The notes under the pieces are model-generated. The model had not been told where the DNA came from. It searched no databases and saw only the letters and a list, made by a program, of their open reading frames with translations. Made by a program: the position numbers and the translations under genes. From the IMG/VR virus record IMGVR_UViG_3300042462_000689: a stretch of DNA of 64,000 nt; one strand, given 5' to 3'. This document shows, piece after piece, positions 16,619 through 54,999 of this stretch (within the stretch, counting starts at the first letter, position 1; every line of letters starts with the position of its first letter). The DNA comes from a virus.

Positions 16619-16633
16619 GCAGTTGAATCAAAC

Positions 16634-16672
16634 AAGCAGGCCGGGTCCGAACCCCGCGCCTGCTTTTCTTTT
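16634..16672 (+). terminator. Intrinsic terminator
   Basis: AAGCAGGC...GCCTGCTT stem followed by TTCTTTTT. Confidence 0.7.
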
Positions 16673-16681
16673 TGCAGATAA

Positions 16682-20647: not shown

Positions 20648-22893
20648 TGAAAATTCGAATCCCAATGGTGGTCAGTGAGAACGGAAATATCAGCTCGTCT
20701 TTTTTCCGGGCGAGCGACGGAGGCGAGCATCAGGATGTGGGTCTGCTGTGGGAGGATGTTCCGCCGCACCTGCAGGCACGGCTGCTGCATGTCGTCGTCG
20801 AGGTGGACATCGAGGCGTTGTTCAAGGATGCGACCATCGAGGGCAGTGTAGATCTGCAGGTATCCAGGGAGATTCCAAATGGCGCATAGCCCCCTAAAAT
20901 TCACGCAATCAGTGTCGGCGTTGTTCCGGGTGCCGGCGCAGAATGGCGAGCGCATCGAGGCCTACCTCTACCGCCTGAGCGGCATCCTGTCCTCGGCATC
21001 CTCCTTCCCGTTTGATTTGGAGCATCTGCGGGTGGATTTCACGGACCTGCCGGTGGTGGGGGATTTCGCATTTGCGAGACATGCCAGCGCAGCATTGGAC
21101 AAGGTATTCGACAATTACGACGACGACCGGTATGTGCTGATGGCGGACTCGCATCGCGGGATGCCCGATGGTTTCATGCTCATCATGCGGACGGAATTGG
21201 AGAGGCTCTCGCAGCATGTGGCCTCGGCCCTGCGTTTCTTGAAGACGCCCAGGATTATGGTGACGGGATCGCGCAGACAGCAGACGGGATTCATCGGGAT
21301 TCCGCTCACGGCATTTGTAAAATGAACACAGAAACAACTAAAACAATGAAAACGAAAATCGGCACTTCCGCCGAATATCCAGACCCAAAGCCGGAGCCAG
21401 GATGGTCCGTATGGATCGAGAACGGGGTGTGGTTTACCGCACCGACAGTGGACCCGGAGAAATTTGGAGAGCACGCCTACTGGAAGCAGGCCTGGGTCGG
21501 CAATTGCAAATGTGGGTGTGAAATGCATAGCTCATCGAGCAGCGGTTCCGTAGACCCATTTGGGGCGTGCCCGGAAAATCCAAAACAATAACCATGGAGA
21601 AAGACCAAATTGTTCTTCAGGGATGGATCGAGGTGCTTCACCGGACATCCAAATCAATTCCTCGGTGTTGTCGGGATTTGAGGCGCGAGGATTACGCCCC
21701 GGCCGCACCAACCCCACTGCCCTTAAATGAGTACGATCTGATGACGCAAATTCTGGCGCAGTTTCTCAGCCCGCAAATGGTGCCGGCGGAGGGGATGGAA
21801 TTGCGGGGGCTTCGTGAGTATGACGTCATCGCCAACTACATCACAACTCCGCCACTCAGAAGCTCGACGCTCATCCTGGTCTCGCCGAAGAATGCAGGGA
21901 AGTTCTACACAGCAGGGATGGATGTGTACGGGTCTTCGCACACAGAATTGAAAATGATTCCATTGCCGGCGGCGCTTAGATTTGCCCCATTCTTTCGAAA
22001 CCAATAACCATGAACGTATTGATAAACTTCACCTGCATCGGCGATACGGAATTTCCTAGCGATCCCTGGCAAATGACACCCAAGGATACGCCGGAGACTG
22101 CGTGGATAGTAGAGGTGGCATCGCTGGGCGCGTCAGTGTTTAAGGAGGAGCGGATGGTGTTTGAGAACGGGCTGGAGGATGCACTGATGAAGACACCAGC
22201 CTTTCTGGACTCGTGGCGATCCAGGGCGGCAGGCACACTGGAAGCATGTCCTGTGGACGTCATCTACGGCATCCACATCAAATCCGTCCTGCTGCGCCTG
22301 CTGGGCCGCTGGGCTGTGCTACGTGGAGCCCCCAATTGCAATCTCATCAATCCCCCTGTTGGCACTCCGGTGTTCCAGGATTTGTGCGAGCTGTTCAATT
22401 ATCCGGCGGGTCTCACCAAGGAGGAGCGGTATTCGTTCTCCCCGGCACGCATTGACCGCGTGTTGAACATCAAATCAGGTTCCTCGACGGAGGCGGCCTG
22501 GAATCTGGCGAGGCGGTTCATCAGCTAGCTCACATGTACACAGAAAAAGTAAATCGAGTCATCAGGGAGAGAATGCCCGCGGGATTTATTGAAGGAATCC
22601 GTTGGAAGTTTCTCGGGCAATGGATTGTGTTCAACCCCGCCGAGGATTTGAACGCATGTGCCGCGTTTGAGCAGACATTGGATCCCGTCAAGAACCTGCT
22701 CAATGCGGAAGACGGAGAAGAAACACAATGGGGCAACTACGTGTGGAATCTGGAGCATACGGGCGAGCCAACATGCGCCGAGGAGGATATCTACAACCGC
22801 ACAATCAGTGCAACGCCGATGCAGAGATGCAAGGCATACATCAAGACCGTATGCCCGGAAGAATGGGAGGAGACTCCCCACAAAAACAAATGA
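20647..22893 (+). CDS. Run of six hypothetical ORFs (20647..20889, 20879..21325, 21322..21591, 21594..22007, 22010..22528, 22534..22893)
   Basis: Contiguous + strand ORFs with A-rich start contexts; no recognised motifs. Confidence 0.5.
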
Positions 22894-24611
22894 GTGAAAC
22901 AACAACAGCCTTCTCGGCCGTAAGATTCCCCGACCGGAACAATATCAACAACATGGCGCAGTGCGCCCGCGGGTTTCAAAACCTGAATGCGGTGCTCAAG
23001 CGGATGGGGTTCGACAAATTGCGCAAGGGGCAGGACGGGGTGATCACGAGCATCATGTGCAATCGGGATACGCTTTGCGTGCTTCCCACGGCGACTGGGA
23101 AATCGGCCTGTTTTACAATCCCCACGCTCGCGCTGGATTGGAGGACGCTGATCTTCGTGCCGCTGGTGGCGCTGATGCGTGACCAGGTGCAGAGTCTGTG
23201 GAGAAAAGGCATCTCGGAGGCCGGCTGTCTTTCCAGCCTGCAATCCGAGGGTGAGAACGTACAGGTGGCGCGGGATTGGATGTCCGGCAAATTACGGTTC
23301 CTGTTCGTCGCACCGGAGCGATTGAGGAATCCATGGTTCCAGCAGGCAATGAAGGCGGTTGCGCCTGATTTGATCGCGGTGGACGAAGCTCACTGCTTGT
23401 CCGAGCACGGGGACGATTTCCGTCCGGACTATTGCAAGATCGGCGACTACCTTCGCGAGAACCCCCCGAAGGTGGTGGCGGCATTCAGTGCGACGGTGGA
23501 CGAGGAGGCGGAACTGGATATCCGCCGCGTACTCTGCATGAACAACGCCGTGAAGGTGACGCACATGCCGCGACGCAAGAATCTGATTCTGAGCAGCAGC
23601 GATTTGACCCACGACAATGACGTCGTGGATTTCCTGGAGGAGAAGATCAAGGAAAAGGAAAGCTTCGTGGTCTATTGCTCGACTGTGAAGCATGTCGAGG
23701 AATTCACGATCTTCCTGCAGGCCAACCTGAAAGGGGAGGTCGGGATGTATCATGGAAAGCTGACACCGGCGCAGAAGCGATCCATGCAAGATGAGTTCAT
23801 GAAGGACCGGGTGCCGGGGGTGGTGGCCACGAATGCATTCGGTATGGGTGTGGATAAACCGAGCATTCGGGCCGTCGTTTACCGAGACATGCCCGGTAAT
23901 CTGGGTGAGCTTAGCCAGGGGCAAGGCCGTGCCGGTCGCGATGGGAACATCTCCCACTGTCACACCTTCTTCGACGACAACGGTCTGCGCACCCAGAACT
24001 GGTTCCTGATGACCAAGTATCCCAGCGAGTCGGCGGTGCGGTCGGTGTTCCTGGCGTTGAAGAAACTACAAAAGCCAAATGGCATGGTGCAGGCCAGCTA
24101 CGACGACATCGCCAAGGTGGCGCAGGGACATGCCGCGCAAATCGGCGCCGCCCTGCAAAACCTCAAAGCGGCCGCGGTCATCGAGAGCACCAGGCCCGAG
24201 ACCAAGAATCACAAAATCAAATTCCTGGATGAAGTGCCGAAGGCGCAGGATTTGCGCTTTGAGGAGTACAAGCACGTGATCAATCAAATCGGCGTGGAGG
24301 ACAACAACACCGGCCTGTTGATGGTGGATGCGGATACGCTGGCGGAGCGGCTGGATGTGGGAGACCAGACCATTCGCAACAACCTGCGCAAATACCAGTC
24401 GGCGGGTTTTCTGTATTTCGAGCCGCCCTACAATGGCTCGGACATCAAAATCATCGGAGGAATTGAACGCATGGAGTTTGGGCGGCTCAAGGACAAGCAG
24501 GCGGCGGCGGAGAAAAAATTGAAAATGGTTTTGGATTACAACCATGTGCCGGATGATCAAAAGCATTCTTTCCTGGAGAAATACTTCGGCATCACCGAGC
24601 CTTCCGAATAA
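22890..24611 (+). CDS. recQ: RecQ-family SF2 helicase
   Basis: LPTATGKS, DEAHC, SAT, ATNAFGMGVDKPSIR, QGQGRAGRDG; start reassigned to ATG 22890 (aaacaaATG). Confidence 0.9.
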   Translation: MSETTTAFSAVRFPDRNNINNMAQCARGFQNLNAVLKRMGFDKLRKGQDGVITSIMCNRDTLCVLPTATGKSACFTIPTLALDWRTLIFVPLVALMRDQVQSLWRKGISEAGCLSSLQSEGENVQVARDWMSGKLRFLFVAPERLRNPWFQQAMKAVAPDLIAVDEAHCLSEHGDDFRPDYCKIGDYLRENPPKVVAAFSATVDEEAELDIRRVLCMNNAVKVTHMPRRKNLILSSSDLTHDNDVVDFLEEKIKEKESFVVYCSTVKHVEEFTIFLQANLKGEVGMYHGKLTPAQKRSMQDEFMKDRVPGVVATNAFGMGVDKPSIRAVVYRDMPGNLGELSQGQGRAGRDGNISHCHTFFDDNGLRTQNWFLMTKYPSESAVRSVFLALKKLQKPNGMVQASYDDIAKVAQGHAAQIGAALQNLKAAAVIESTRPETKNHKIKFLDEVPKAQDLRFEEYKHVINQIGVEDNNTGLLMVDADTLAERLDVGDQTIRNNLRKYQSAGFLYFEPPYNGSDIKIIGGIERMEFGRLKDKQAAAEKKLKMVLDYNHVPDDQKHSFLEKYFGITEPSE

Positions 24612-25386: not shown

Positions 25387-26019
25387 ATGAACCAAGAACT
25401 CAAGAAACCCACCCTCTCCGACGCCACCCGCACCCCCATCGCCGCATTCAAGCCGGCGTATTTGGATCAGCGGGGCGGTGACGACAAGCTGATGCTCGTG
25501 GCAGTCACACCCACCGGCCAGCAGCGGAGCGTGCAATGCACCCCGCAGGTATTTGCCGCGGCCTACGGGCAGCCCCTGCCGGACAACAAGCATTCCGCAC
25601 TGGACCGCCTCACCGAGCACGACTTCGTGATGCTCACCAAAAATATCAAAGGCACGGATATGTGCGTCGGCGTGCATGTCTTCCCGCGCAATGATTTCCT
25701 CGGCACTTCGATTCCGATCAAGGCAGCAGAGGTGGATGTCGTGGAAGTGGTCATCAACCCGGCCAGCGGGGAGCTGAATGTCCGCAAGGCCCCGATCTCC
25801 GTGAAGGCGCCTTCGATGCATCGCATCCTCGCCGCGATCGACAAGCGCGACACGCTCAAGGTGGGTGAAGTCATTGATTCGGGGCTCGGACTCCGAGTGA
25901 AGAACATCATCGGCAACGAGGTGCAATTTACGGTCAACATCTCCACGGCGCGGCAGGAGCGCACCACGCTCGGTAATGTGATGGCGGCGGCCAATGCGCC
26001 GGCGGCGGTGCCTGCGTAG
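25387..26019 (+). CDS. Hypothetical protein
   Basis: 210-aa ORF with strongly biased codon usage. Confidence 0.65.
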   Translation: MNQELKKPTLSDATRTPIAAFKPAYLDQRGGDDKLMLVAVTPTGQQRSVQCTPQVFAAAYGQPLPDNKHSALDRLTEHDFVMLTKNIKGTDMCVGVHVFPRNDFLGTSIPIKAAEVDVVEVVINPASGELNVRKAPISVKAPSMHRILAAIDKRDTLKVGEVIDSGLGLRVKNIIGNEVQFTVNISTARQERTTLGNVMAAANAPAAVPA

Positions 26020-26058
26020 TCTGCAATTCAAATTCTGAAGGCCAACGGGCGCTCCTTG

Positions 26059-26090
26059 TGAAATACGGGGAGCGCCCGAGTCATATACAA
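26059..26090 (+). promoter_or_regulatory. Bipartite promoter-like motif, copy 1
   Basis: TGAAATAC-N13-GTCATATACAA, intergenic. Confidence 0.65.
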
Positions 26091-26175
26091 GTGTAGCGCC
26101 ACTGGTTTCTTTTATGGCGAATGGAGCGGTTTCAAAATTCAAAATTCAAAATTCAAAGTGAACGAAAATACAAAA

Positions 26176-26761
26176 ATGCCGCCCGAACCCCCCTCACCGA
26201 AACCCACATCCGAATTCACCATATGGCATGGGATGTGGATCGTGATCGGGGTCATTGCCGTAGTGCACTTCATCCCACCGGTCCTGATCTGTTTGGGTGG
26301 GGGAATTGCGCTGGCGGCGGCGGGAGACAAGATCTGAAATGAAACTGACACTGACGATTCGTGAGCTGTCGAATTACAACTGGGACAAGGTGTGTGCCGT
26401 GACAGGGTTGAATCCCTGGTGCATGGCCGAGGGCCTCGCCTCCGGCGACGAGGCAGTCGAGCTGACGGAAGAGCAGGCGCGGGAGATTGGCGTGATGTCG
26501 AAGCGGGAGGAGTGAGCTTTGAAGTAAATACAAACCAGAAATCAAATGACCAATGCGCAAGGAATGATAATGCGGCGGGTGATCGCGGAGGGCGGCTCCT
26601 CACAAATCCGGCGCGGGTTCAAGACAATGATCGAATGGGAGCAAGGCAGGAAGCTCTGTGATGAAGGGCTGTTGTCCATTGTCACGCTGGATGCCGCGCC
26701 CATGTGGTGGACGATCACGCCGGCGGGACGGAAAGCCTGCGAGGAATACGGATTGAGTTGA
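26176..26761 (+). CDS. Three small ORFs (26176..26337 membrane peptide, 26339..26515, 26546..26761)
   Basis: Manual translation; first has hydrophobic stretch WIVIGVIAVVHFIPPVLICLGGGIALAAA. Confidence 0.55.
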
Positions 26762-26766
26762 GATTT

Positions 26767-26800
26767 GAAGGAGGGGCGAACGGGCGCCCCTCCTTCTTTA
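26767..26800 (+). terminator. Intrinsic terminator
   Basis: GAAGGAGGGGCG-AACGGG-CGCCCCTCCTTC-TTTA. Confidence 0.65.
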
Positions 26801-26835
26801 CCTGGCGCATCTTTTGGGTATGCTGGTGGACGCAA

Positions 26836-29800
26836 ATGCCAACGGACAATTCACCAATCACCCTGCCCACCGGCGTCGTCCTGCGCGCCCCGGAGGATTT
26901 CGACACCCTGCGCACCAGCATTTACGACACCGCGAAGAAGGGCCTGGAATCCTCCTTTCCGACGTCCTACAACGGCGTGCGCATGGAATTGAAGGACGTG
27001 CATTACGCCGATCCGGATGACTTCCCGCTGGATGTGCAAAAGCAGGCCATGCTCACGGACAAATCCCTCGGCCGCCGGCTGCGGGGCTCCGTGCATCTCT
27101 ACGATGACAATACCGGCGACCTGCTGGACAAGCGGGACATGACGCTGATGACGGTGCCGCATATGACTGAGCGGGGCACGTTCGTGAACGCGGGCAGTGA
27201 CTACGCGCATGTAAATCAGGCCAGGCTCTTGCACGGCGCCTACAGCCGCCGGATGCAGAATGGCAACCTGAGCACTTCCGTGAACGCCAAGACCGGCACC
27301 GGTCCCGCCTTCCAGGTCGAGTTCGAGCCGACGACGGCGCAATACCGGATGCACATCCGCGGCAGCAATCTGCATCTCTATTCCCTGCTCCATGACATCG
27401 GCATCCCCGATGAGCAATTGGAGAAGACCTGGGGCCCTGAGCTGCTGGATCGTAATCGAAAGAAATACGACGCGCGGGTCATTAGCAAAGCCTACGAGCA
27501 TTTGGTCGCCCCCCGACACAAGCTGCCCGAGCACACACCCGAGGATCGCGTCAAAGCCATCCATACGGCATTGGACTCCGTGCGGGTGCACCGGGATGCC
27601 ATCGGCAAAACGCTGCCGGTCCTGCTCGGCGGCAAATCAGCCACGGCATGGCGGGCGAAGATGAGCGTCCGGCAGGCCGACTTCGAAAAGGAAATCTTCG
27701 CCCCTTCAATTCCACCACATGAGGCAATGGGCATGGGATTTGAAATGGCGCACCCGGAGATCTTTTTTGAGGTCGCCGGGGATTGTGAAGTGCCGGTGTT
27801 TGAAAAGCTGGCCAGCGCCAAATCCGAATCCGAAGCCAAAGGCTTTGAACCCGACCTGGATGCCGATGGTATGCGCGAGGCCTACAATGCCGTGTATGCC
27901 AAGGCAGGCCCGCGGCTGGCAGGCATGAAGCAATGGCCGAAGCACTGGTTTACGGACGAGGGCGATCCGCTCGGCTGGATTTCGTGGTATTGTCGATACG
28001 CCGATGGAGCGCGCGGTCCGGACGACGAGCGTCAAATCAACCGCTGGAAATCCTTCAAGGCGCGCAGCGTGCCACGCTTCATCAAGAACCCCACAGCCCG
28101 GCAGGCATTTGCGCTGCGGTATTGGGCAATCGACCCGCTGCCGCTGATTACGGATGCCGATGCACGGAAGCAATTGAAGGAGGACATGAAGGAGCACCAG
28201 GCGGCGGAGATGCGGAAGTTCTCGGAGCGGGCGTGTGATGATTATCCCAAATTGGAGCGTGAGAAGGAGGCCAGTGTGTTGGCGGTTGGTGTTGTCCCTC
28301 CGCCCAGAGACCTACCCGAATGGCAACTCGGCCTCATCAAATACGCACGGGCAAATGCGCCCAAGGATCCGGAGAAGCCCAATCCTGAATACAAGGGATG
28401 CCTGATGGCCCGACTGCAATTGTCCGACGCGAAGAAGATCATCGAATGGGCCGAGGAGAACATCCCGGAAGATCAATTGGCGGAGGACGGATTTGAACGC
28501 GAAATTCACTGTACAGCCCTATTCGGGATCCATCAAAGCGTCACGAAGGAGCTGCTCGAATCCGCCGTGAAGGAAATCATGAAGGACGCCGGCGGTTCGC
28601 TGATCCTGCAATTGAAGGAGATCCATCGGTTTCCTGCCAGCGAGCATCGCAACAGCGACGTCATTGTCCTGAAGTGCGAGTCGCCGTGGCTGGAGGAATT
28701 GCACTACGGGCTGATCGAGAAGCTGGGGGACAAGGTGCAGGTCACGTATCCTGATTACACCCCACATGTCACCGTGGCATACGTTAAGCCCGGAGCATTG
28801 AAGCATCTCGATGACAGCCAGGTGTTCGATGGGCAATTGCTGCCGCTGAGTCCTTTGATTTACTCGATTGCGGATCGCACTGCGAAACATGAAATTGAGA
28901 TGTTCGATTCCAAGATGGAAAAGGACGCAGCGGAAGTTCCAATGTTTGGGGATCAGCCGGCCCATGAGGTCGTCAGTCCCGGCGGGGCTCGCTCATCTCA
29001 TCAATTCACGACCAGCAGCGGGTCTCGTTATATCATGGGCGAGGATGGTTCTTCCCGCAGAATTAAGTCCTTCCATGCCAACACAGGTGGGGCAGATGTA
29101 GGCTTGAAACCGTGGCAGGAGAACATCCGATTTGTAGACCCGAAGAATCCTCATTTTTCTACAGACGTCGGGCGACTTCAAGAGTTGGGGCATCACGTGC
29201 ATCTGGCCCCAAGTGGCGAACAAATGGGTGTGAATATTTATGACCAGGCCGCGCAGAAGTGGAGGCCTGCTACTATTGCAGATGCGAGACCGAAGGCTGT
29301 CGCGGCCGGAATCCTCAAAGGCGGAGAGGCACCGCTGCGCGCGGGGATATCGGCAATCCCACAGCCAGGATCGCACGTGCTGGAGTGGAACAATCATTCC
29401 GACGGGCGCCTAAAGAGCGTACACCCCGGCAGCCCGGTTGCACAGACGGAGTGGGCAAGGCCGCCTGCGGCGACCACAACCCCAGCCACCCCAGCCCCAG
29501 CGCCTGCGTCAGCCGCCGCCCCAGCCGCCGCCCCAGCCGCCGCCAATGCCGTCACGGCCACCAAAGCGGTAGCTCCAATTGCGCCAGCCGCCTCAGCCGC
29601 CCCAACCGGCCTCAAACCTCTTGCGGCTCTAAAGGGTACTGCTGGCGCTCTCGATGGGGGTGCGGTGAGGGCGGCAGGTCGGGCCTTGGGAACTGGTGTA
29701 AAGATTGTTGGTGCGGTTGCCAGGCCCTTGTCTGCCATCACCACAGTAAATGACCTTTATCAATCAGCGACGAATCCTAGAGGTGCTGCAAAAGATTTTA

Positions 29801-30909
29801 ATGACAATTGGAATAAGGCAGGCCCGATCGGCCGTACGCTGTCCGTGATCGGCAGTCCAATTGCAGCGCTGAATGCGCAGGCTGAGAATCACGAGGAGAA
29901 TCGGGACCGGCTGCAAGACGCCCAACGTAGAAGCTCAATTCTTCCGATTCATCCACCGGACCCGGTATTCCCTCGACCTACGCAGCAATCAGATCCAAGA
30001 GCATTAACCCCGAGACCCCGCCCAGCACCGACGCCAGCACCGACGCCAGCACCGACGCCAGCCGTCCCCCCGGCACCCAAACCCACAACTCCGACCGGTT
30101 CTGGTTTTGTAGGGGCGCCACCCATTCCCAAACCTCCAGCGCCAGAACCCATCATGGCCGGGGGTCTCAGCAAGACCACCACGCCGTCGATCGGCAAGAT
30201 CGCCGCTGCCCAGCAAGGCTGGCCTCCAGTCGCTATACAGGAACTTCAGGCACGCTTCGCCGCTGACCAGAAAGCACGCGCGGGTGTCAATCCAACCACC
30301 ATGACTGCAGAAGCCGCACAACAGACGGAATCGGGCATGGCGAAAACGGATCGCGACAACACGGCATGGCTTCAATCCAACATCGGAAAATACGGCTGGC
30401 CCACTGGCGCCCCCGCGAATCAGGCTTGGTTGCTGGCACAGCATGCGGATCACGATCCGAAGTTTCAGGCCGTCGTGTTGGAGAAGATGCAGGCTGTGTC
30501 GAAGAATCTCCAACATCCGGAGCATCTGTCCAACGTGGCGTATCTGACGGACCGAGTGGCCGTGAATAATAAACAACCGCAGCTTTACGGCACGCAACTG
30601 AATCATCAGTGGGATCCCGTGAAAAACACATTTTCGAATCCGACACCGCACCCAATTAGCGATGCCGCAAACTTGGATGCGCGACGTAAGTCCATGGGGA
30701 TGGGACCGCACGTCGATTATTTGAAAACGCGTGCACCTGCCGCACCCGCCCCTACTCCCACGCCACAGCCCGCAGCACCGCCAGCTTCTGCACCGCCGCC
30801 GACACCCAGCGGGACAGTACCGAAAGCGCCCACCGCTCCCATGTCGTCAATTAAGGGTGTGCCGGGTGCAGTAAAATCCGCAGCCGCAAATGCAGAGGAT
30901 TCCAAATGA
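26836..30909 (+). CDS. Multidomain polyprotein: RNA polymerase beta N-terminal fragment + unknown DPxGW domain + Acb1-like 2H phosphodiesterase + Pro/Ala linkers + DUF6624-like domain
   Basis: VPHMTERGTFVNAGSDYAHVNQARLLHGAY matches RpoB IPLMTxxGTFxINGxERVxVSQLxRSPG; HCTA and DYTPHVTV 2H motifs; YGWP...AWLLAQHAD...AYLTDRVAVN...QLYGTQ; start reassigned to caaATG 26836. Confidence 0.8.
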   Translation: MPTDNSPITLPTGVVLRAPEDFDTLRTSIYDTAKKGLESSFPTSYNGVRMELKDVHYADPDDFPLDVQKQAMLTDKSLGRRLRGSVHLYDDNTGDLLDKRDMTLMTVPHMTERGTFVNAGSDYAHVNQARLLHGAYSRRMQNGNLSTSVNAKTGTGPAFQVEFEPTTAQYRMHIRGSNLHLYSLLHDIGIPDEQLEKTWGPELLDRNRKKYDARVISKAYEHLVAPRHKLPEHTPEDRVKAIHTALDSVRVHRDAIGKTLPVLLGGKSATAWRAKMSVRQADFEKEIFAPSIPPHEAMGMGFEMAHPEIFFEVAGDCEVPVFEKLASAKSESEAKGFEPDLDADGMREAYNAVYAKAGPRLAGMKQWPKHWFTDEGDPLGWISWYCRYADGARGPDDERQINRWKSFKARSVPRFIKNPTARQAFALRYWAIDPLPLITDADARKQLKEDMKEHQAAEMRKFSERACDDYPKLEREKEASVLAVGVVPPPRDLPEWQLGLIKYARANAPKDPEKPNPEYKGCLMARLQLSDAKKIIEWAEENIPEDQLAEDGFEREIHCTALFGIHQSVTKELLESAVKEIMKDAGGSLILQLKEIHRFPASEHRNSDVIVLKCESPWLEELHYGLIEKLGDKVQVTYPDYTPHVTVAYVKPGALKHLDDSQVFDGQLLPLSPLIYSIADRTAKHEIEMFDSKMEKDAAEVPMFGDQPAHEVVSPGGARSSHQFTTSSGSRYIMGEDGSSRRIKSFHANTGGADVGLKPWQENIRFVDPKNPHFSTDVGRLQELGHHVHLAPSGEQMGVNIYDQAAQKWRPATIADARPKAVAAGILKGGEAPLRAGISAIPQPGSHVLEWNNHSDGRLKSVHPGSPVAQTEWARPPAATTTPATPAPAPASAAAPAAAPAAANAVTATKAVAPIAPAASAAPTGLKPLAALKGTAGALDGGAVRAAGRALGTGVKIVGAVARPLSAITTVNDLYQSATNPRGAAKDFNDNWNKAGPIGRTLSVIGSPIAALNAQAENHEENRDRLQDAQRRSSILPIHPPDPVFPRPTQQSDPRALTPRPRPAPTPAPTPAPTPAVPPAPKPTTPTGSGFVGAPPIPKPPAPEPIMAGGLSKTTTPSIGKIAAAQQGWPPVAIQELQARFAADQKARAGVNPTTMTAEAAQQTESGMAKTDRDNTAWLQSNIGKYGWPTGAPANQAWLLAQHADHDPKFQAVVLEKMQAVSKNLQHPEHLSNVAYLTDRVAVNNKQPQLYGTQLNHQWDPVKNTFSNPTPHPISDAANLDARRKSMGMGPHVDYLKTRAPAAPAPTPTPQPAAPPASAPPPTPSGTVPKAPTAPMSSIKGVPGAVKSAAANAEDSK

Positions 30910-31634
30910 TCTCAAAACGCGACCTCAATTCACTTTCCCGCAAGCGCAACCAGCCCGTCAAAAGGGCGGCCTCGATAAAGCCGAAGCCCGCCCAGCCGGT
31001 CTCCCCGCAGGAACCGGAGGATCCAGACTACGTCCCATTTGGCGTGAAGGGTGTGCTGGGAGCCACGGAGCGCCTGCTGGCCGTCAGCCGCGGACTCGAT
31101 GAACCTGACAACCGGGACAGCTACGGCTTCAAACGCATTTGGGGCGTGGACAAACATCTCGGCGAACGCATCCGTCTCGATGCCGGCAAAATCCGCCGGC
31201 AGCAAATCCGCACGGCTGCCAAATTGCGATCCCTCAAGGGCACCCATCCATTTGCTTTCGATACCTACACTCGTGGCCTGATTCTCGGAGATCCCGGCGA
31301 GGCCAATCCTCTCAGCTCGCCCCTGGAGGAAATCAATCCATTGCATTTGCTGGAGCAGGCGCGTCGCATTACGCAAATGGGGCCTGGGGGGATTCAGTCG
31401 TCGCAGGCGATAACGGCCGACGGACAGAACGTCTCGGCATCTCAATTCGGATTTGTGTCCTCGATCGCTGGACCAGAATCAGAAAAGATCGGCATCGACG
31501 CCCGCCTCGCCCATGGAGTTCGAATTGGGTCCGACGGTCAATTGTATCAGCAGTTCAAAAATTCGCGGACCAAGCAATTGGAGTGGAAGACGCCCGGCGA
31601 GATTGAGCATCTTACAGTTCGCATCCCGGACTAA
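30906..31634 (+). CDS. RNA polymerase beta subunit, middle fragment (fork/rifampicin-pocket region)
   Basis: DNRDSYGFKRI; EEINPLHLLEQARRITQMGPGG...VSASQFGFVSSIAGPESEKIGI aligns with RpoB [22 protein letters not shown]...[22 protein letters not shown]. Confidence 0.88.
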   Translation: MISKRDLNSLSRKRNQPVKRAASIKPKPAQPVSPQEPEDPDYVPFGVKGVLGATERLLAVSRGLDEPDNRDSYGFKRIWGVDKHLGERIRLDAGKIRRQQIRTAAKLRSLKGTHPFAFDTYTRGLILGDPGEANPLSSPLEEINPLHLLEQARRITQMGPGGIQSSQAITADGQNVSASQFGFVSSIAGPESEKIGIDARLAHGVRIGSDGQLYQQFKNSRTKQLEWKTPGEIEHLTVRIPD

Positions 31635-31713
31635 ATTGGTATTTGACGACGATGTGTGTTTTGCAGATGATGCTTCCAGCAATCACGCAATTCTCTAAAA
31701 CACCCATCCACAA

Positions 31714-32823
31714 ATGATCGTCCAAAACATCAGCGGCCGCAAACTCAGCATCTCCATCGGGAACGTGTCTGCGGATCTCATCAGCAATCAGACCACGAGC
31801 GCAGGCACCTTTCCGGACACGGAGCAGGCCGCGGCGGACGCGGAGAAATATCGCAAGCTCGGCTACATCAAGGTGCTGTCCTCGGCCCTCGAAGCCGAAG
31901 GCGACCTCGATGTGCCGGCTGGCTACCTCCTTTCGGCGACCGGCCTCCCGGTGGTTCTGAAGGCGGCCACTGGCACGCTCACCATCACCAGCACGGGTCC
32001 GGCGGCAGACGAGACTTTCGCAATTGACGGCACGACTTTCACTTTCAAGGTGTCTGCCGCCACTGCGACCGAAGTCACTATCAGCACGACCCCAGCAACG
32101 CAGGCTGCGAACATTGTTTCCAAGGTGAATGCGCAGATGACCACGGTCACTGCAGCCAATGTGCTGGGTGTGGTTACGTTCACGGCGGTGACTCGCGGTA
32201 CTGCGGGCAATTCGATTGCTCTGGCGGAGTCAGCGGCCAATGTGGCGAAGTCCGACACTACCCTCACCGGCGGGACTGCCCACGGCGCAGAGAATGTCAC
32301 GGTCAACGGCGTGGTTTTTGAGGCGTGCGCCCAGGTCGGCGATGTCAGCGACAGCAGCTACGTTCCCGTGCTGATCGGCGCGACTGCCAGCTCCTGGCTC
32401 ACCAATCTGCAGACGGCGGTGAACGCCAACACTACCCTCATCGCTGCGCAGGTGCAGGCGCAGAGCCTCATCACCATCGTGGCGGCAACTGATGTGCGCC
32501 TGACTATTCAGGGCAACGGCAGCACGGCGGCCTCGGTCACAGCGGGCGTCACCAACCTCGCCATCGCCTCGGTCGCGGCGGTCAACCGCACAGCGGGCGT
32601 TCCTGTGATGGAGGACTTCGCGGTTACGGGCACTACGGCACTCGTGAACACTGGCCTTCGCACCATCGACCGTCTCGTCGTGCAGGCCAAGACTTCTGCC
32701 AACGCACTCAAGCCGCTGGACGGCACGCTGACAATCGGCGGCGGCCTGTTCTACATCACCGGCGGTTCCGCTGGCATCCTCGCGAACGGCGACACGCTGA
32801 CCTACATCGCGGAGGGCGTGTAG
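31714..32823 (+). CDS. Putative virion structural protein (Thr/Ala/Val-rich, beta-strand rich)
   Basis: ATGTLTITSTGPAADETFAIDGTTFTFK-type segments typical of tail or decoration proteins; strongly biased codons. Confidence 0.55.
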   Translation: MIVQNISGRKLSISIGNVSADLISNQTTSAGTFPDTEQAAADAEKYRKLGYIKVLSSALEAEGDLDVPAGYLLSATGLPVVLKAATGTLTITSTGPAADETFAIDGTTFTFKVSAATATEVTISTTPATQAANIVSKVNAQMTTVTAANVLGVVTFTAVTRGTAGNSIALAESAANVAKSDTTLTGGTAHGAENVTVNGVVFEACAQVGDVSDSSYVPVLIGATASSWLTNLQTAVNANTTLIAAQVQAQSLITIVAATDVRLTIQGNGSTAASVTAGVTNLAIASVAAVNRTAGVPVMEDFAVTGTTALVNTGLRTIDRLVVQAKTSANALKPLDGTLTIGGGLFYITGGSAGILANGDTLTYIAEGV

Positions 32824-32857
32824 TCCATTTGATTTCAACTCCAAACCATAAAATTAA

Positions 32858-33028
32858 ATGACACACGCTGACCAAGTAAAAGCCCACAACTACGCAATGA
32901 ACACGCATCTGCTTGCCGCCGGCAAGTCGGAGGCGTTCGTCAAAGCCGCCCTCGCCAAATTCCCGGAAGTGCAGAAGGCTCGCGTCTCGCGCTCCTCGCA
33001 CATCGCGAAGACGCTCCTCGGCGCGTAG
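32858..33028 (+). CDS. Small protein (56 aa) missed by ORF track
   Basis: MTHADQVKAHNYAMNTHLLAAGKSEAFVKAALAKFPEVQKARVSRSSHIAKTLLGA; aaattaaATG start. Confidence 0.65.
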   Translation: MTHADQVKAHNYAMNTHLLAAGKSEAFVKAALAKFPEVQKARVSRSSHIAKTLLGA

Positions 33029-33081
33029 TTCGTCGAAGATTCCCATTGCCGAAATCACGCCGCGGTCTTTAGGCTGTCGGC

Positions 33082-33747
33082 GTGATTTTGCGTACTGACG
33101 ACAGCTCGATTCAACAATTCAAGAATGCCCTGCGCGATGCGCTGAGCAACCGGAGGATCCCATTGTACCAGCTTGCCGAGGCAGGGAAGGTGCATCGGAA
33201 GACATTTGGTGAATGGCTCAGTAGCAAACGAAAACCGAGACCAAGCTCCATGCGTCGTTGCAGCGAAAACCTGCAATTGAACTGGGAGCGCAAATCCAAA
33301 TCCACCAGCAGACATCCGCCACGCGGACCGCTGGAGGAAGCAATCAAGCGCAGCCGGGAAAAGCTCGCTACCCGAGGAGCATGTTACGCCGTAGAGGATG
33401 TGGGTATCCGGGTGGCCGCCAGGCTGCGCGACGCCGGCATTCCACTGAAGGTGGAGACGCATTACACGGATGACGCCCCCTGCGTGATCATGGTCATCGA
33501 CAACTGTGCGTTTATTTCAGGCGCCATGCATTTCAGCGTCCACGCCCATGCGGGTTCCATCAATTACGAGCTGGGGACTGTGGACTTCGTCACCGCTCAA
33601 AGCATCCGTCACCTCTTCGGCGCGCTGAGCGCAAAGGCCGTGGATGCCGCAATTGATTTTATTTTGAAGGCAGCACGCAAACACAAAGGGGATCGCAATC
33701 CCCTGCAAGACCTAGACTCCAAGCTGGAGGAAGCAATTCACAACTGA
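33082..33747 (+). CDS. XRE-like helix-turn-helix protein
   Basis: LRDALSNRRIPLYQLAEAGKVHRKTFGEWLSSKRKP resembles Cro/C1 HTH. Confidence 0.55.
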   Translation: MILRTDDSSIQQFKNALRDALSNRRIPLYQLAEAGKVHRKTFGEWLSSKRKPRPSSMRRCSENLQLNWERKSKSTSRHPPRGPLEEAIKRSREKLATRGACYAVEDVGIRVAARLRDAGIPLKVETHYTDDAPCVIMVIDNCAFISGAMHFSVHAHAGSINYELGTVDFVTAQSIRHLFGALSAKAVDAAIDFILKAARKHKGDRNPLQDLDSKLEEAIHN

Positions 33748-33751
33748 GCAT

Positions 33752-34435
33752 ATGACACACCTCGCAAACGAAGACCTGACACCCGACGCGGTAGTCGATC
33801 AGCACAACGCAGTCCTGGCAGCCTTGCGTCGGGCCGGGCAGTCCATGGGGGATGGGCAAGCGACTGATGACTACAATGCATCCGAGCCGTACAGCAACAT
33901 CAGACTTTTACCCACCGAGCAGCGCAGCATTCCGCGACAGGAAATCCCCACAATGAAGATCGCCCTGCAGCACCGGGACTTCACCATGCACCTGCAGGTC
34001 ATTGACGTGTGCGTGGGGGAGGACCAAATCGGCGTCATCATGCCGGCCAGCCTCCACGTCGAGACCATCCGCAACAAGGCCAAGTTCGATTTGGTATTTG
34101 AGGAGCAGAGCTACCCCATCGCCTACTTCGGCGGTAATTTCACATTCACGGCAGCCGACCCGGAATTGCGGATGCTGACGTTCATGCGGCTTCCCACACC
34201 GACAACCAGTTCCTGATGGCGAAAGCCAATTGAAGCCGCTACACTCGGGGTCATGATGACGAAATCTGCTGTCGTAACCAAGGACACTCCCTCCGTCGTG
34301 TCCGCCCGCCGCGGCACCGAGGTGCGTGACGGCGAGGCCGTACGCCGCGGGGAGCAATTGCCCGAGGTATATGCCCGCCCGCTGGAGAAAAATGCGGCGG
34401 TGCGCGTGAAGCCAATTCATTCCGAAGACCAGTAG
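33752..34435 (+). CDS. Two hypothetical ORFs (33752..34216, 34253..34435)
   Basis: Upstream of portal-like gene. Confidence 0.55.
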
Positions 34436-34438
34436 CAC

Positions 34439-36292
34439 ATGCATTGTCCTGACATCGGCACGGAATTGGGATCGAAATTTGGGATGACCTTCAAGGGAGG
34501 GAAGGCCCAATTCGAGGATCCGTACATGATGGATGCGGCGCAGTATATGCCGCGCACGCTGGAGTCCGCTTTTGATTTCTGCGCGTTCCTTTACCATCTC
34601 AATCCCGCCTACAAACAGGCCAAGCATCGAATTGCCAGCTACTTCCTGGCGCCTGGCATTGAGTTCATCGGCGACAAGCACGGTGACAAAAAAGAGCAGG
34701 AGATGCTCACGGACATCCTGATCGATCAGGTGAACATCAAAGGGGAGTGCACCATTGGTGGGATGGAATCGGCCGCCTACGGCAATACATTCTTCACACA
34801 CTACAAACCATTTGACCGGATGCTCTATTTCCCGAAGGAGATGGAGAATCGAATTCCCGGCGAATGGCACGTCTCCATGTTCGAGGGCCTCGGTCCCGTC
34901 AAATATCTCTATAAGGAGATGATGTACGAGGTGATCGACCCGCGGGATGCAGGCAAGGCCATTGGCAAACGTCGCAAGGTCAGACTGGATTTCTACGACC
35001 GCGCCAGCAAGGACGTCAGCCGGTTCAAGCTCATCCGGGTTCCGGTGCACGAGATGCATCTGGTCATCACCCCGATGCTGAACAACACGCGCTACGTGCG
35101 CAGGTTCTCGGAGCAAATCCGCCAGCAGATCACACAGGGCGACCCGTTCTATTGCAACGACATGCCGATTGAGTTCCTGGAGGCGCTCTCGAAGAACGAG
35201 GATTTCCTGTACCACCCGGACCATATCTTCCACATGAAGTCTCCGACGATCAATTGCCTGCGCAACTCGGCGTGGGGAATTCCGGAGACGCTGATCAATT
35301 ACCGACAGCTGCATCATCTGCAGGTCATGCGTCGGATTGACGAGGCTGTGGCCCGCGACCGCGTGCTGCCATTGCGCATCATGGTTCCGAATCTTGCCGG
35401 GGCGGGAGACGTCATGCTGCAGGACATGCTCGGTTCCAATGTGCGCGGCGAGATCCGGGAGCTGATCGCCAATCATCGCCGCGACCCCTATGCGATTCAT
35501 TCTTTGCCGTATCCGGTCTCCATGGTGCAGGCTGGCGGCGATGCCCAGGCGTTGGTGCAGAGTGCCAACATCGAGTATCACACCAACGCGCTGATGGATG
35601 CCATCGGCACCCCGGTGGAGCTGTATAAAGGCACCGTGGAGATTCAGAACATGCCATCGGCCTTCCGGTTGTTCGAGAGCCAGCATCAGTTCTATTATTA
35701 TTCCTTCAACAAGGTGATTCGCTGGACGGCAGACGCCATTCAGGATGTGCGCGGTGCGGCGAGAATGCAGACCCGTCTCAGTCGTTCGCAAATGGCGGAT
35801 CAATTGGAGGATCGCGGCATTTACATGCAGCTCATGGCTGGCGGTCAGATTAGTTACGAGCGAGGGCTTGGGTCTGTGAATATCGAGGACCCTGTCGCAG
35901 AGAAAAAGAAGCGCGTGATGGAGGACATGGAAATCATGAAGATCACGGGAGATGCCCAGCGGGAATTTGAACTCCAGCAACAACAAGGCACTCTCCAAGA
36001 CGCACCCCAGCAACCCGGAGCAACCCCCACAGCGGGATACGGCAATGCGCCTGGCGCTGGGGGCGCAGGCCCACAATCCACACCCATTGATGTCCAGAAC
36101 AAAGCTCAGGAAATTGTGGAGCGTTGGAGAACGGCCCCTGACCAGGCGACTAGGACGAAGGATATGGCTTCTGTGCGCGCCACGGATCCGGTGCTTGAGG
36201 GCTACTGCCAGCGGCTTTTCAAACAAGTCAAAGAACAAGGAGCATCGCAAGGGCGTGCCTCTGTGACACAGCCTCAGCAGCCCCAGCAGTAA
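34439..36292 (+). CDS. Putative portal protein
   Basis: DPYMMDAAQYMPRTLESAFDFCAFLYHLNPAYKQAKHRIASYF resembles N-termini of large-phage portal proteins; 617 aa; Q/P-rich tail. Confidence 0.6.
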   Translation: MHCPDIGTELGSKFGMTFKGGKAQFEDPYMMDAAQYMPRTLESAFDFCAFLYHLNPAYKQAKHRIASYFLAPGIEFIGDKHGDKKEQEMLTDILIDQVNIKGECTIGGMESAAYGNTFFTHYKPFDRMLYFPKEMENRIPGEWHVSMFEGLGPVKYLYKEMMYEVIDPRDAGKAIGKRRKVRLDFYDRASKDVSRFKLIRVPVHEMHLVITPMLNNTRYVRRFSEQIRQQITQGDPFYCNDMPIEFLEALSKNEDFLYHPDHIFHMKSPTINCLRNSAWGIPETLINYRQLHHLQVMRRIDEAVARDRVLPLRIMVPNLAGAGDVMLQDMLGSNVRGEIRELIANHRRDPYAIHSLPYPVSMVQAGGDAQALVQSANIEYHTNALMDAIGTPVELYKGTVEIQNMPSAFRLFESQHQFYYYSFNKVIRWTADAIQDVRGAARMQTRLSRSQMADQLEDRGIYMQLMAGGQISYERGLGSVNIEDPVAEKKKRVMEDMEIMKITGDAQREFELQQQQGTLQDAPQQPGATPTAGYGNAPGAGGAGPQSTPIDVQNKAQEIVERWRTAPDQATRTKDMASVRATDPVLEGYCQRLFKQVKEQGASQGRASVTQPQQPQQ

Positions 36293-36297
36293 ATCAA

Positions 36298-37173
36298 ATG
36301 CGTGAAGTCAATTTGCAGTTCCTGAATAATTTGGATAATCCGAAAAAGGAGAGCCCCTCTGAAATGCGCATGCCCATTTTTCGAATGCACGGTTTGACTG
36401 GAGTGTATTGCGCAATTCATCGCGAAACCGGAATGTGTTATGTGGGGAGTGCTTCAGTCAGCATTCAACGGCGGTACACGGCGCACCTGAGGCAAGCTAG
36501 GTGTGGGAGTAAAACTGCGTTTCACTCGGCAATTAGAAAATACGGAGCGTCTGCGTGCGATTTCGAGGTGCTGCGTGAGTGTAAGCCCGCTGAGGTTTTG
36601 AAGTGGGAGACTTTTTATATCAAATTTCTGAATTCGGCTTCCGTGGAAGGCTTTAATACCGTGACCGAACCAGGAACCACCTTGCTCGGGTTCAAGAAAA
36701 CGGAGGTCATGCGTTCACGTATCTCGCAGGCAAACAAAGGAAATGTTTTCTCGGCGGAGAGTCGCGAGAACATGTCCAAGGCTAAAAAAGGAAGGCCTAT
36801 TGCGCCAGAGGTAATGGTGCAAAGGTTAGAGTACTACAAGACACATCCGACATCCACAGAGACCAGAGCAAAGATATCCAAAGCAGTGAAAGGAAGGAAG
36901 GCTTCTCCAGAAACCATTGTTAAGATAGCGGCTGCAGCACGAGGGAGGACGTGGTCAGAAGCGGCAAGAAAGCAGATGTCCGCTACACGAACGGGTAGAA
37001 AGGCGTCCGACGAGACCCGTAATAAAATGTCCCAATCGAAAAAAGGAAAACCCAAGTCTGAGGAGACCAAACGGCGCATGGTCTTGGCGTGGCAAATACG
37101 CAAACAGAAGAAAGCCGAAATGAAGGCAGCGCAGGAATTGGCAAACGCCCCGGAAACGAGCTATACTTCCTGA
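36298..37173 (+). CDS. GIY-YIG homing endonuclease with NUMOD3 repeats
   Basis: GVYCAIHRETGMCYVGSA...RRYTAH; repeated (H/K)S.ETR.K(I/M)S...KG motifs. Confidence 0.88.
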   Translation: MREVNLQFLNNLDNPKKESPSEMRMPIFRMHGLTGVYCAIHRETGMCYVGSASVSIQRRYTAHLRQARCGSKTAFHSAIRKYGASACDFEVLRECKPAEVLKWETFYIKFLNSASVEGFNTVTEPGTTLLGFKKTEVMRSRISQANKGNVFSAESRENMSKAKKGRPIAPEVMVQRLEYYKTHPTSTETRAKISKAVKGRKASPETIVKIAAAARGRTWSEAARKQMSATRTGRKASDETRNKMSQSKKGKPKSEETKRRMVLAWQIRKQKKAEMKAAQELANAPETSYTS

Positions 37174-51866: not shown

Positions 51867-51907
51867 GTTTGCGCCGCCCTCCCGAGTCAAATCGGGAGGG
51901 CGGTTGC
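51867..51907. repeat. 41-bp direct repeat copy 2
   Basis: Identical to 51643-51683. Confidence 0.9.
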
Positions 51908-51966
51908 GCCTGCTTCTGCTTTCGATCCGACTTTCAATCTCAAATTCCCTGTGCAATACTTCCCCA

Positions 51967-54900: not shown

Positions 54901-54999
54901 ATTGCGCCGCAGGAGATTCGCCCTGGTTACCTGTCACCCTCCACCGCGATGGCGTTGCAGAATGCCTTGTATGGTGGTGGTGGTGGACTGGGCATTTGA
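51967..54999 (+). CDS. Multidomain putative virion protein with N-terminal GNAT acetyltransferase
   Basis: GFVGWQE...IGYYAIGMLPEFRRQGMAKDAV (acetyl-CoA motif RRQGMA)...NTPSLKLAESL; then Gly-rich segments and a coiled coil; start reassigned to 51967. Confidence 0.7.
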   Translation: MFTVKKANSDSRHEVEGIMSQILAESPKSWPHGLSMDLFEEGRDSIYMVRSASTNQPAGFVGWQEREERDCLNQPIKIGYYAIGMLPEFRRQGMAKDAVAGIIRHHQRGVDEVRAMIQKDNTPSLKLAESLNVPVEKVAFWKALLSPVARRIYGGLGSAGAMDYLTHGTDYSHIDGRRVLNTAVNAGLGALGAHYSMPHKGMGGVLLPGNPAVGFNLGVLSPIGKDIMMNVLPATHKLAPALDALTDKAKQAPAVPAVPTPEWSPLAKAGLIGALGLGAYGVHRLSKSISNAAEANNQGRLQVRLPTRHPGDQETTVDVPVSDANLTGGLKDRIFRDTRRKLRQESKERTWHRGDKHRLLSNDEDDDGMEKVAACFLWLVKEAGISSSEIQDAGNKLEAAALAANTLQRISPTAKLAPLARGLGRLAPPVATYGAVNEFADFSDDPNAAMRKFWKDTKGMSNAGFAYHSVTNPITATASVLNGAWNRMHGRPLAPAAPPKGEQWPLARRRQPETMVVVPHTPAAHGAKPNPGIYNTHKAPNFTGPTNPTSGVKSGGGNVGGMMTAMPTKPIPTIQFASSIKGPGETEDPQAKMEQEKEQAEQAKQLEAAQADSDTHKSTLTEMKEHQHSERMQMREQLMAHQQKLHEMKLENASLRAKADMASTVPEPQENRGATQVNDYATQLHNKATSIMKKLSAVNPYYANLLWDRACKMAGVTPDAGAAGEEDYYRQHNSGGFGQAMTGFGFHDKGMQDSAYNAINPTKPEAQWGMGDKMKHWGANLAAGAGWLGDALVSPFRYGTRSLLRAGSHFSEGNYGKGLMHGTLGTASAALGVLPGVGALRSGIGAGARLTGLTRGMMTANIPQVAEGAKQPPTPMAPGVVAGTPTPTPGAPASPSSDIPMILKSWLGLGGDANTTNDAGHFLPPSLVSQNPGNEDSPDYKNPFLQKVMPTAMRFLAKGPAPESSMRAFAESEGSQGGIAPQEIRPGYLSPSTAMALQNALYGGGGGLGI

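Follow-up and report, generated by a model that had tools for sequence, protein, structure and literature searches.

In a 64,000-nucleotide stretch of DNA from an uncultured lake-water phage (hereafter the window), which is part of the IMG/VR virus record IMGVR_UViG_3300042462_000689, a complete 185,656-bp record with direct terminal repeats, a single uninterrupted frame at positions 26836–30909 (+) encodes a protein of 1357 residues, as given by the open reading frame (ORF) listing and its translation. We are highly confident in the descriptive core of our analysis, namely that this protein, which we call the carrier (P0001), joins a fragment of the beta subunit of a multisubunit RNA polymerase (RNAP) to a variable cargo of the kind found in the polyvalent proteins of phages. 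Our preferred reading, to which we give a probability of roughly 0.6, is that the carrier is a polyvalent protein built on an RNAP beta fragment, and that it would be packed in the capsid and injected with its enzymes still tethered; on this analysis, a phage polymerase is probably the vehicle that brings counter-defence enzymes into the cell. The parts of the carrier are listed below, with the basis of each assignment in brackets.

26836–30909, + strand: whole ORF, RNAP beta-N1 fragment with a C-terminal polyvalent module array, 1357 residues
26836–27660, + strand: beta-N1, residues 1–275, bacterial-type RNAP beta, the protrusion with part of the lobe (homology)
27661–27825, + strand: junction segment, residues 276–330 (alignment of 39 relatives)
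27826–28245, + strand: DPxGW domain, residues 331–470, small and all-helical (conservation, AlphaFold2 model)
28333–28932, + strand: Acb1-like 2H phosphoesterase, residues 500–699 (Pfam, PHROGs, HxT motifs)
28933–29475, + strand: 'unkX' domain, residues 700–880, with an invariant KSFHANTGG motif (homologues)
29476–29610, + strand: Ala/Pro linker (composition)
29611–29955, + strand: Gly/Ala-rich middle region (composition)
29956–30165, + strand: Pro-rich linker (composition)
30166–30735, + strand: DUF6624 domain, residues 1111–1300 (Pfam)
30736–30906, + strand: Pro/Ala-rich C-terminal tail, residues 1301–1357 (composition)

The Polymerase Fragment and the Split Beta Subunit

Homology to the N-terminus of RNAP beta spans carrier residues about 35–266, where residues 28–264 of gp206 of Salmonella phage Arash, annotated as RNAP beta, match by tblastn (E 3e-15), and residues 71–205 of solved bacterial beta chains, the conserved 'MTERGTF' block included, match by phmmer (E 0.0017). 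Both matches agree with the sequence-only reading made earlier of this DNA, which had taken the first ~270 residues for the RpoB N-terminal region; Pfam returned no match on residues 1–275 even at E ≤ 10. Identity in beta-N1 is 37–59% to the relatives described below and only about 26% to Arash. The segments of gp206 map to three ORFs of the window.

Arash gp206 residues 28–264: window 26938–27633, in the carrier ORF (beta-N1)
Arash gp206 residues 270–469: window 31053–31631, in ORF 30906–31634 with Rpb2_3 (beta-N2)
Arash gp206 residues 484–1104: window 55269–57125, in ORF 55233–57137 with Rpb2_6 (beta-C), E 7e-92

It follows from this mapping that the 1080-residue extension of the carrier sits exactly at the break between contiguous beta segments, inside the lobe. 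The two further pieces of the beta subunit, which is divided among at least three genes, are the following.

30906–31634, + strand: beta-N2, 242 residues, Rpb2 domain 3 / fork (Pfam RNA_pol_Rpb2_3)
55233–57137, + strand: beta-C, 634 residues, catalytic part of beta, 24 kb downstream (Pfam RNA_pol_Rpb2_6, E 6e-54)

Beta-N2 aligns with residues 425–576 of E. coli beta, and pieces of beta′ lie at genome positions 162.8–165.4 kb and 1.7–4.7 kb. Because Rpb2_6 and Rpb1_2 each have one match in the complete 185.7-kb genome, the phage has one polymerase set only. The stop codon of the carrier (30907–30909) overlaps the ATG of beta-N2 at 30906 (ATGA), an arrangement that fits coupled translation of the two proteins, and such a stop/start overlap is also present in loci L010, L011, L014, L025 and L041. 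On sequence grounds, the split of beta is ancestral: in locus L003, beta-N1 stops at the equivalent of residue ~265, is free of cargo, and has beta-N2 2.3 kb downstream. At the same point, beta is continuous in Arash, in D181, and in the beta–beta′ fusions P0005 and P0006. A complex prediction of beta-N1 with beta-N2 and the DPxGW domain returned a score of 0.00 and allowed no verdict.

As further observations on this polymerase, the genes for the single enzyme, at least six of them, are dispersed around the genome, with the N-terminal part of beta′ being encoded by an ORF of 1131 residues that seemingly holds an intein-like insert. In L003 (10001–12124), a Hint+LAGLIDADG intein lies at about residue 146 of beta-N1, and in L004 a polymerase piece carries an intein or homing-endonuclease insert at 14862–16679. 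Inserts of ~0.5–2 kb (intein/homing endonuclease) recur in the beta-N2 of L016–L018, L020, L022–L024, L027, L028, L035, L038 and L042, at about residue 192 in most loci and at about residue 175 in L022, L024 and L042.

Exchange of Cargo among Relatives

An exhaustive HMMER search with the cargo alone retrieved 5489 proteins at E ≤ 0.001, of which the best 150 representatives of 50%-identity clusters were examined; beta-N1 is joined to cargo in 37 of these 150 (438–1853 residues). The same layout is present in 34 IMG/VR loci, which, together with loci from ENA and with L003, make up the 39 loci considered here. Beta-N1 always ends at residue ~275–290 in these loci and is then followed by the extension, the proteins totalling 372–1597 residues, and beta-N2 is found 0–2.5 kb 3′ of the carrier in the 38 of them that reach far enough, L015 having none within the stretch covered. 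When loci and cluster representatives are taken together, the proteins headed by beta-N1 range from 372 to 1853 residues and differ in their enzyme sets. Extension modules are missing in L003, L030–L033, Arash and D181. A Pfam census of the cargo, covering 39 members with P0001 and the near-identical relative P0003 included, gave the following counts.

2H (2_5_RNA_ligase2): 12 of 39
InPase (PF18823): 8 of 39
NUDIX: 2 of 39
ATP-dependent DNA ligase, AAA_18 kinase, HAD_PNKP and LigD 3′-phosphoesterase (LigD_N): 1 of 39 each
Intein or LAGLIDADG families: 3 of 39 each

The sequence-only reading had expected the cargo to vary among orthologues while the RNAP part stays constant, and this is what the relatives present: P0003 (1597 residues) is 96% identical over residues 1–699, and its downstream cargo is replaced. 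The borders of such replacements can be placed at the DNA level in the close relative L004, which by blastn is collinear with the window at ~92% identity except for two stretches that are exchanged for unrelated DNA, namely window 28934–30200, which holds unkX, the linkers and the middle region (breakpoint 28933/28934), and window 30419–30872, which holds the remainder of DUF6624 together with the tail. Modules are exchanged by recombination inside the ORF, between strains with ~92% identical flanks.

These properties point to a polyvalent protein, a class defined by Iyer, Burroughs, Anand, de Souza and Aravind in 2017, in a paper that lists 2H, InPase and the N4-type virion RNAP as components (PMC5512222). 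At least two unrelated domains stand in one phage ORF, architectures vary rapidly among relatives, and domains are held in common with other polyvalent proteins, including the portal- and MuF-fused proteins P0008, P0009 and P0047.

Modules of the Array

The description given earlier, of four apparently unrelated modules joined by Pro/Ala linkers in one ORF, holds for the carrier, with DPxGW, 2H, unkX, DUF6624 and the linkers all having been found. Between beta-N1 and the first of them lies the junction segment, which comes after a semi-conserved K[SA]A..W stretch at residues ~266–274. An F-x-P-[DS] motif occurs twice in P0001, at residues 288–297 and 336–345 (window ~27697–27870), that is, just past the end of beta-N1 and at the start of DPxGW, and both copies are kept in relatives.

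About 110 residues long, DPxGW is a conserved domain in which 15 columns do not vary among 18 proteins, and is modelled by AlphaFold2 as a small helical domain with a predicted local distance difference test (pLDDT) score of 85. No other module accompanies beta-N1 as constantly: among the 39 loci DPxGW is fused in 27, stands between beta-N1 and beta-N2 as a gene of its own in 5, and is absent in 7. No Pfam family matches it at E ≤ 10, no significant Foldseek match was found in PDB or BFVD, and the best VIA Z was 4.5, the sole lead on its fold being an ESM-Atlas shape match to a giant-virus cluster of DUF5824 (template-modelling (TM) score 0.62). A tblastn search of the whole protein against 50,697 records of cultured phages yielded no DPxGW match. 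Identity with DUF6321 was considered and rejected, as DUF6321 is not matched by P0019, a DPxGW protein that stands alone; DUF6321 appears to be a different motif that co-occurs with DPxGW. Outside the beta-N1 proteins, DPxGW is found at the end or start of large phage proteins with NUDIX, LigD phosphoesterase (LigD-PE), P-loop kinase, PAP2 and SNF2 domains. On a different phage contig (L045:4905–14036), for example, a 2011-residue protein combines PAP2, three NUDIX domains, DUF4269 and a P-loop kinase with a C-terminal DPxGW, its neighbours being a DUF6321 protein and a further NUDIX protein; DPxGW therefore also marks large multi-enzyme proteins without a polymerase fragment. A PHROGs test of the neighbours of another such protein, P0124, for a head-module context returned nothing informative.

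The 2H module is assigned by several profile matches. Pfam Acb1 (PF23474) matches residues 530–650 with a score of 27.3 bits (cut-off 27), and 2_5_RNA_ligase2 matches at 23.9 bits, while the Acb1 score of P0003 is 21.9 against the same cut-off. PHROGs, searched with the whole protein, matches the 2H part only, with 'RNA ligase' families (phrog_755), and the best solved match of the domain profile is the Acb1 structure 9q2g (E 2e-5). Both HxT motifs, H558-C-T560 (window 28507) and H644-V-T646 (window 28765), are invariant in 11 aligned sequences, and the domain is homologous to those in the portal fusion P0008 and the MuF+ART protein P0009. Judged by these motifs and profile matches, the 2H phosphodiesterase is catalytically intact and closest to Acb1. 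In the complete genome, the RNA ligase families PF09414 and RtcB are both absent, the search for PF09511 being uninformative; this absence tips the 2H module towards the degradation of cyclic-nucleotide signals rather than heal-and-seal RNA repair here. An RNA ligase gene (PF09414) stands directly 5′ of the beta-N1 carrier in L004 (8780–9463) and is missing at window 26121–26342.

Homologues of unkX include P0047 (4060 residues, with ART-PolyVal and MuF_C), in which the similarity extends through about carrier residue 1002, as well as P0111 and the stand-alone proteins P0136 and P0157, the stand-alone forms having about 180 residues. Searches for it gave no Pfam match at E ≤ 10, no usable match in an ESM-Atlas feature search and no near-length homologues in a word-index search. 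The GC content at third codon positions (GC3) is 0.59 in unkX and 0.47–0.49 in the next two segments, compared with 0.80 in beta-N1 and 0.61–0.77 in other genes, so that the sequence-only reading was right to note an unknown domain with different codon usage, for which homologues have now been found; this stretch of low GC3 belongs to the DNA that is replaced in L004. The middle region (29611–29955) has no Pfam match at E ≤ 10. DUF6624 (PF20329) matches residues 1134–1297 over profile positions 4–162 of 173 (E 4e-12, 46.4 bits against a cut-off of 27); its AlphaFold2 model is helical (pLDDT 87), 24 columns, mostly polar, are invariant, and a fold search returned generic helical-repeat matches only (Z ≤ 8.3).

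Proposed Delivery and Alternative Explanations

We propose that the cut in the beta lobe between beta-N1 and beta-N2 would have left a free C-terminus and with it a site where domains could accumulate, giving rise to a 1080-residue 'beads on a string' array in which DPxGW, 2H, unkX and DUF6624 are separated by flexible Pro/Ala tethers. Beta-N1 would assemble with the beta-N2, beta-C and beta′ pieces into the polymerase, which would be packed in the capsid and enter the cell with the DNA, in the manner of the Arash, phiKZ and N4 paradigms. Were the polymerase to enter with the DNA, the tethered enzymes would be at the side of the incoming genome from time zero, where it seems most likely that they would break down immune signals made of nucleotides or process the ends of RNAs (2H here; InPase, NUDIX, PNK-like, LigD-PE and ligase domains in relatives), and they would probably act still attached, there being no sign of proteolytic release.

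We infer virion delivery from the presence of beta in the Arash virion, from linkage to the portal gene, and from the injected virion RNA polymerases (vRNAPs) of N4 and phiKZ. Mass spectrometry of Arash virions detected the homologous beta more than any other protein (3516 spectra; PMC10585845), and phiKZ injects its vRNAP together with the signal sponge Tad1 (PMC13282480). The portal gene lies immediately upstream of beta in Arash, whereas here it is found 3.5 kb 3′ of the carrier ORF, on the same strand.

34439–36292, + strand: portal protein gene (match to the Arash portal gp204 by tblastn, E 5e-35)

A PHROGs search with the portal protein of the window gave no match. Several points weigh against delivery of counter-defence enzymes by the virion. 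The authors of the Arash study caution that abundant enzymes may contaminate virion preparations (PMC10585845), and the Arash beta is unsplit, free of cargo and, as said above, distant in beta-N1. Searches with DPxGW, unkX and DUF6624 gave no function or fold, and the Acb1 match of the 2H module is borderline. The RNA ligase beside the carrier of L004 hints at RNA repair in that close relative, and, with the cargo consisting mostly of nucleotide and RNA-end enzymes, co-transcriptional housekeeping fits equally well. A bolder form of the proposal, which we put forward tentatively and hold to be possible rather than probable, is that the cut in the beta lobe would serve a large, so far uncultured clade of ~180–200 kb phages as a dedicated, evolvable effector-delivery slot, anything joined to the C-terminus of beta-N1 being built into the virion polymerase, injected along with it and kept next to the entering genome, with DPxGW acting as a previously undescribed adaptor that marks enzymes for this route, either covalently or by docking; the polymerase would then be both an early transcription machine and the vehicle of a hypervariable counter-defence arsenal.

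The fusion itself could have been produced by the joining of separate genes through misassembly or a sequencing frameshift, an assembly error that the sequence-only reading had also named as a concern and that we find scarcely credible. Short-read unitigs do break within both low-complexity linker stretches, at 29512–29545 and 30022–30062, where unitigs of other organisms join, and they break only there. Against this, the exact stretch is found in 24 lake-water metagenome runs, none of those listed being an RNA run, and overlapping contigs from four independent runs, none of them flagged as a possible source, tile 26500–31800 with 0 differences and bridge all module borders; the fused ORF of P0003 was moreover read in at least 8 contigs from ENA assemblies, and the fused layout recurs in dozens of distant relatives. 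It is likewise highly improbable that the carrier is a polyprotein, cut at K-x-A motifs by a phage protease to set free the modules in capsid or cell. The sequence-only reading had placed such motifs at or near module borders and had proposed that a protease releases the modules there; the tripeptides do exist near several borders, but their number is at chance level (9 observed against 10.5 ± 3.0 expected from composition-preserving shuffles), and the proposed release finds no support. The site at residue 267 recurs in 15 of 39 relatives, inside the semi-conserved K[SA]A..W segment, and is the only recurring one, the remaining sites being kept in 2–6 relatives only, with most relatives gapped at those columns; as a cleavage code, K-x-A was rejected on its chance count and weak conservation. 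Some polyvalent or head proteins are processed, for example DdrB and DarA of phage P1, but no peptidase domain was found in P0001 or its 38 relatives (Pfam, E ≤ 0.001), the genome has no match to the S78 prohead protease, Pro/Ala-rich tethers typically belong to multi-domain enzymes that are not cleaved, and the vRNAP of N4 is packaged without processing. A search for the S77 prohead protease was uninformative, its control likewise being without a match. Given the lack of a peptidase, the Pro/Ala-rich tethers and the chance frequency of K-x-A, we take the modules to work while tethered.

Two further explanations concern what the extension is for. The modules may be accessories by which the polymerase serves its own transcription, through pyrophosphate removal, RNA-end trimming and transcript repair, with DPxGW being a lineage-specific RNAP domain. 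The cargo of the relatives is indeed almost all nucleotide and RNA-end chemistry (InPase, NUDIX, 2H, PNK-like, LigD-PE, ligase); Iyer et al. proposed that InPase clears pyrophosphate and so aids early transcription (PMC5512222); in AR9-type phages, a beta fragment is joined to an HD hydrolase (PMC7824862); and DPxGW is nearly constant beside beta-N1, whether fused or as an adjacent gene, and outside beta-N1 proteins accompanies NUDIX, kinase, LigD-PE and SNF2. We nevertheless regard this explanation, which is compatible with virion delivery, as rather unlikely: polymerase accessories would not be expected to undergo wholesale replacement between strains with ~92% identical flanks, nor to be absent from L003, L030–L033, Arash and D181, and the modules are common to portal-, MuF- and ART-bearing polyvalent proteins. 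Carriage might also run in the opposite direction, with the extension, above all DPxGW, being a capsid-targeting or ejection signal for the polymerase and the enzymes its passengers. Encapsidation of the N4 vRNAP depends on its C-terminal region (PMC5512222), the vRNAP of P23-45 is fused to the tape measure protein, and DPxGW is small, helical and non-catalytic by appearance and also terminates many large multi-enzyme phage proteins. This we hold to be quite improbable, as DPxGW is missing altogether from 7 of the 39 loci, although beta-N1 is split there too, and Arash packages its RNAP without DPxGW.

Relation to Known Systems and Significance

On the reading we prefer, that of a polyvalent protein built on a polymerase fragment and delivered by the virion, the closest precedents are the polyvalent proteins themselves, which share with the carrier the union of several unrelated enzymatic domains in a single polypeptide of a phage, extreme mosaicism, a repertoire of 2H, InPase and NUDIX, a neighbourhood of virion genes, and predicted delivery with the DNA (PMC5512222). 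Their known anchors are MuF, portal, the N4-type single-subunit RNAP and ArdC, whereas here the anchor is a fragment of a multisubunit beta; DPxGW and DUF6624 are present in the carrier, and neither turned up in term searches of that paper (PMC5512222). Polyvalent proteins often, if not universally, include a zincin-like or other processing peptidase, whereas the carrier is without a metallopeptidase domain. The gp50 of coliphage N4 and its relatives likewise exemplify a capsid-packed and injected polymerase, sometimes fused to ART, lysozyme or PBECR domains. The N4 enzyme is a single-subunit, T7-like polymerase in one 3500-residue chain with a metallopeptidase (MPTase) domain, whereas the carrier holds only about one fifth of the beta of a two-barrel polymerase, the rest being spread over at least five genes.

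Multisubunit phage polymerases offer further comparisons. The phiKZ- and AR9-like jumbo phages also have beta and beta′ divided among several genes and inject a virion form (PMC7598289, PMC7824862), and in AR9-like Bacillus phages an HD phosphohydrolase is fused to a beta fragment, as reported in a 2021 jumbo-phage survey by Iyer et al. (PMC7824862). The phage described here differs from these in having one polymerase set instead of two, in belonging to a lineage related to Arash and D181, and in the position of the split point in the lobe, and its carrier differs from the AR9 fusion in having a long, strain-variable array in place of one fixed domain. In Thermus phage P23-45, a two-barrel RNAP is covalently joined to an ejected virion protein (10.1101/2022.12.01.518664), but there the polymerase rides on the tape measure, whereas here the enzymes ride on the polymerase fragment. 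With regard to the 2H module, the resemblance to Acb1 (the T4 gp57B family), an anti-CBASS 2H phosphodiesterase, comprises the 2H fold, the two HxT motifs and the best solved-structure match, the Pfam match being borderline; Acb1 is a free protein of ~150 residues made after infection, whereas the module is embedded in a 150-kDa chain, and sequence similarity is weak.

Here extra sequence emerges from the lobe, between the parts that align with bacterial beta residues ~205 and ~300–425, as it does in bacterial polymerases; lineage-specific insertions in the bacterial beta lobe, such as SI1 of E. coli beta, are reportedly described by Lane and Darst (2010). Insertions of the SI1 type are in-frame structural repeats with beta on both sides, whereas here the cargo is the last part of the chain and beta-N2 has its own gene, and an insertion of this type was ruled out by the stop codon at 30907–30909 and by beta-N2 having its own ORF from 30906. 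The sequence-only reading had known of no description of an RNAP–cargo polyprotein. The literature searched likewise contained no account of a variable module array borne by a fragment of a multisubunit beta; as a broader statement the claim needs qualification, since the polyvalent N4 vRNAP, the tape-measure vRNAP and the HD fusion are known.

The carrier would extend the polyvalent idea to multisubunit phage polymerases, and it suggests that splitting an essential enzyme opens a site at which counter-defence modules can be accreted and exchanged. It also defines two uncharacterised domains, namely DPxGW and the KSFHANTGG domain, and a widespread family (dozens of 50%-identity clusters, 34 IMG/VR loci) in which new anti-defence or RNA-end enzymes may be sought. 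A virion pre-loaded with an Acb1-like enzyme, as predicted here, could act ahead of all phage gene expression, which, if true, bears on the speed at which signalling of the type of the cyclic oligonucleotide-based antiphage signalling system (CBASS) or type III CRISPR is silenced. As no DPxGW fusion was found in the 50,697 records of cultured phages, experimental access requires isolation of such a phage or heterologous reconstruction.

Neighbouring Features

Upstream of the carrier, at 37 nt 5′ of its start codon, one further feature was read directly in the sequence.

26770–26799, + strand: GC-rich hairpin with a 9-bp stem, a 6-nt loop and a T-rich tail

From its form, this hairpin probably terminates the upstream unit; a consensus scan of 26000–34500 for promoters and terminators gave a site count below that of shuffles and did not list the hairpin. 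Directly after the portal gene stands a GIY-YIG/NUMOD3 homing endonuclease gene (36298–37173), whose position is kept in L004. Immediately 5′ of beta-C, a 1031-residue ORF (51904–54999) begins with a GNAT acetyltransferase domain, followed by ~880 residues without a family match, and may likewise be a virion or host-modifying protein of several modules. Elsewhere in the window, a family A DNA polymerase of 1419 residues (10437–14696) carries a domain of the uracil-DNA glycosylase (UDG) superfamily N-terminal to its 3′–5′ exonuclease domain, and a DEAD-box helicase (22728–24611) is intein-free at 627 residues, its counterpart in L004 (3844–6645) having 933 residues with a Hint/LAGLIDADG intein.

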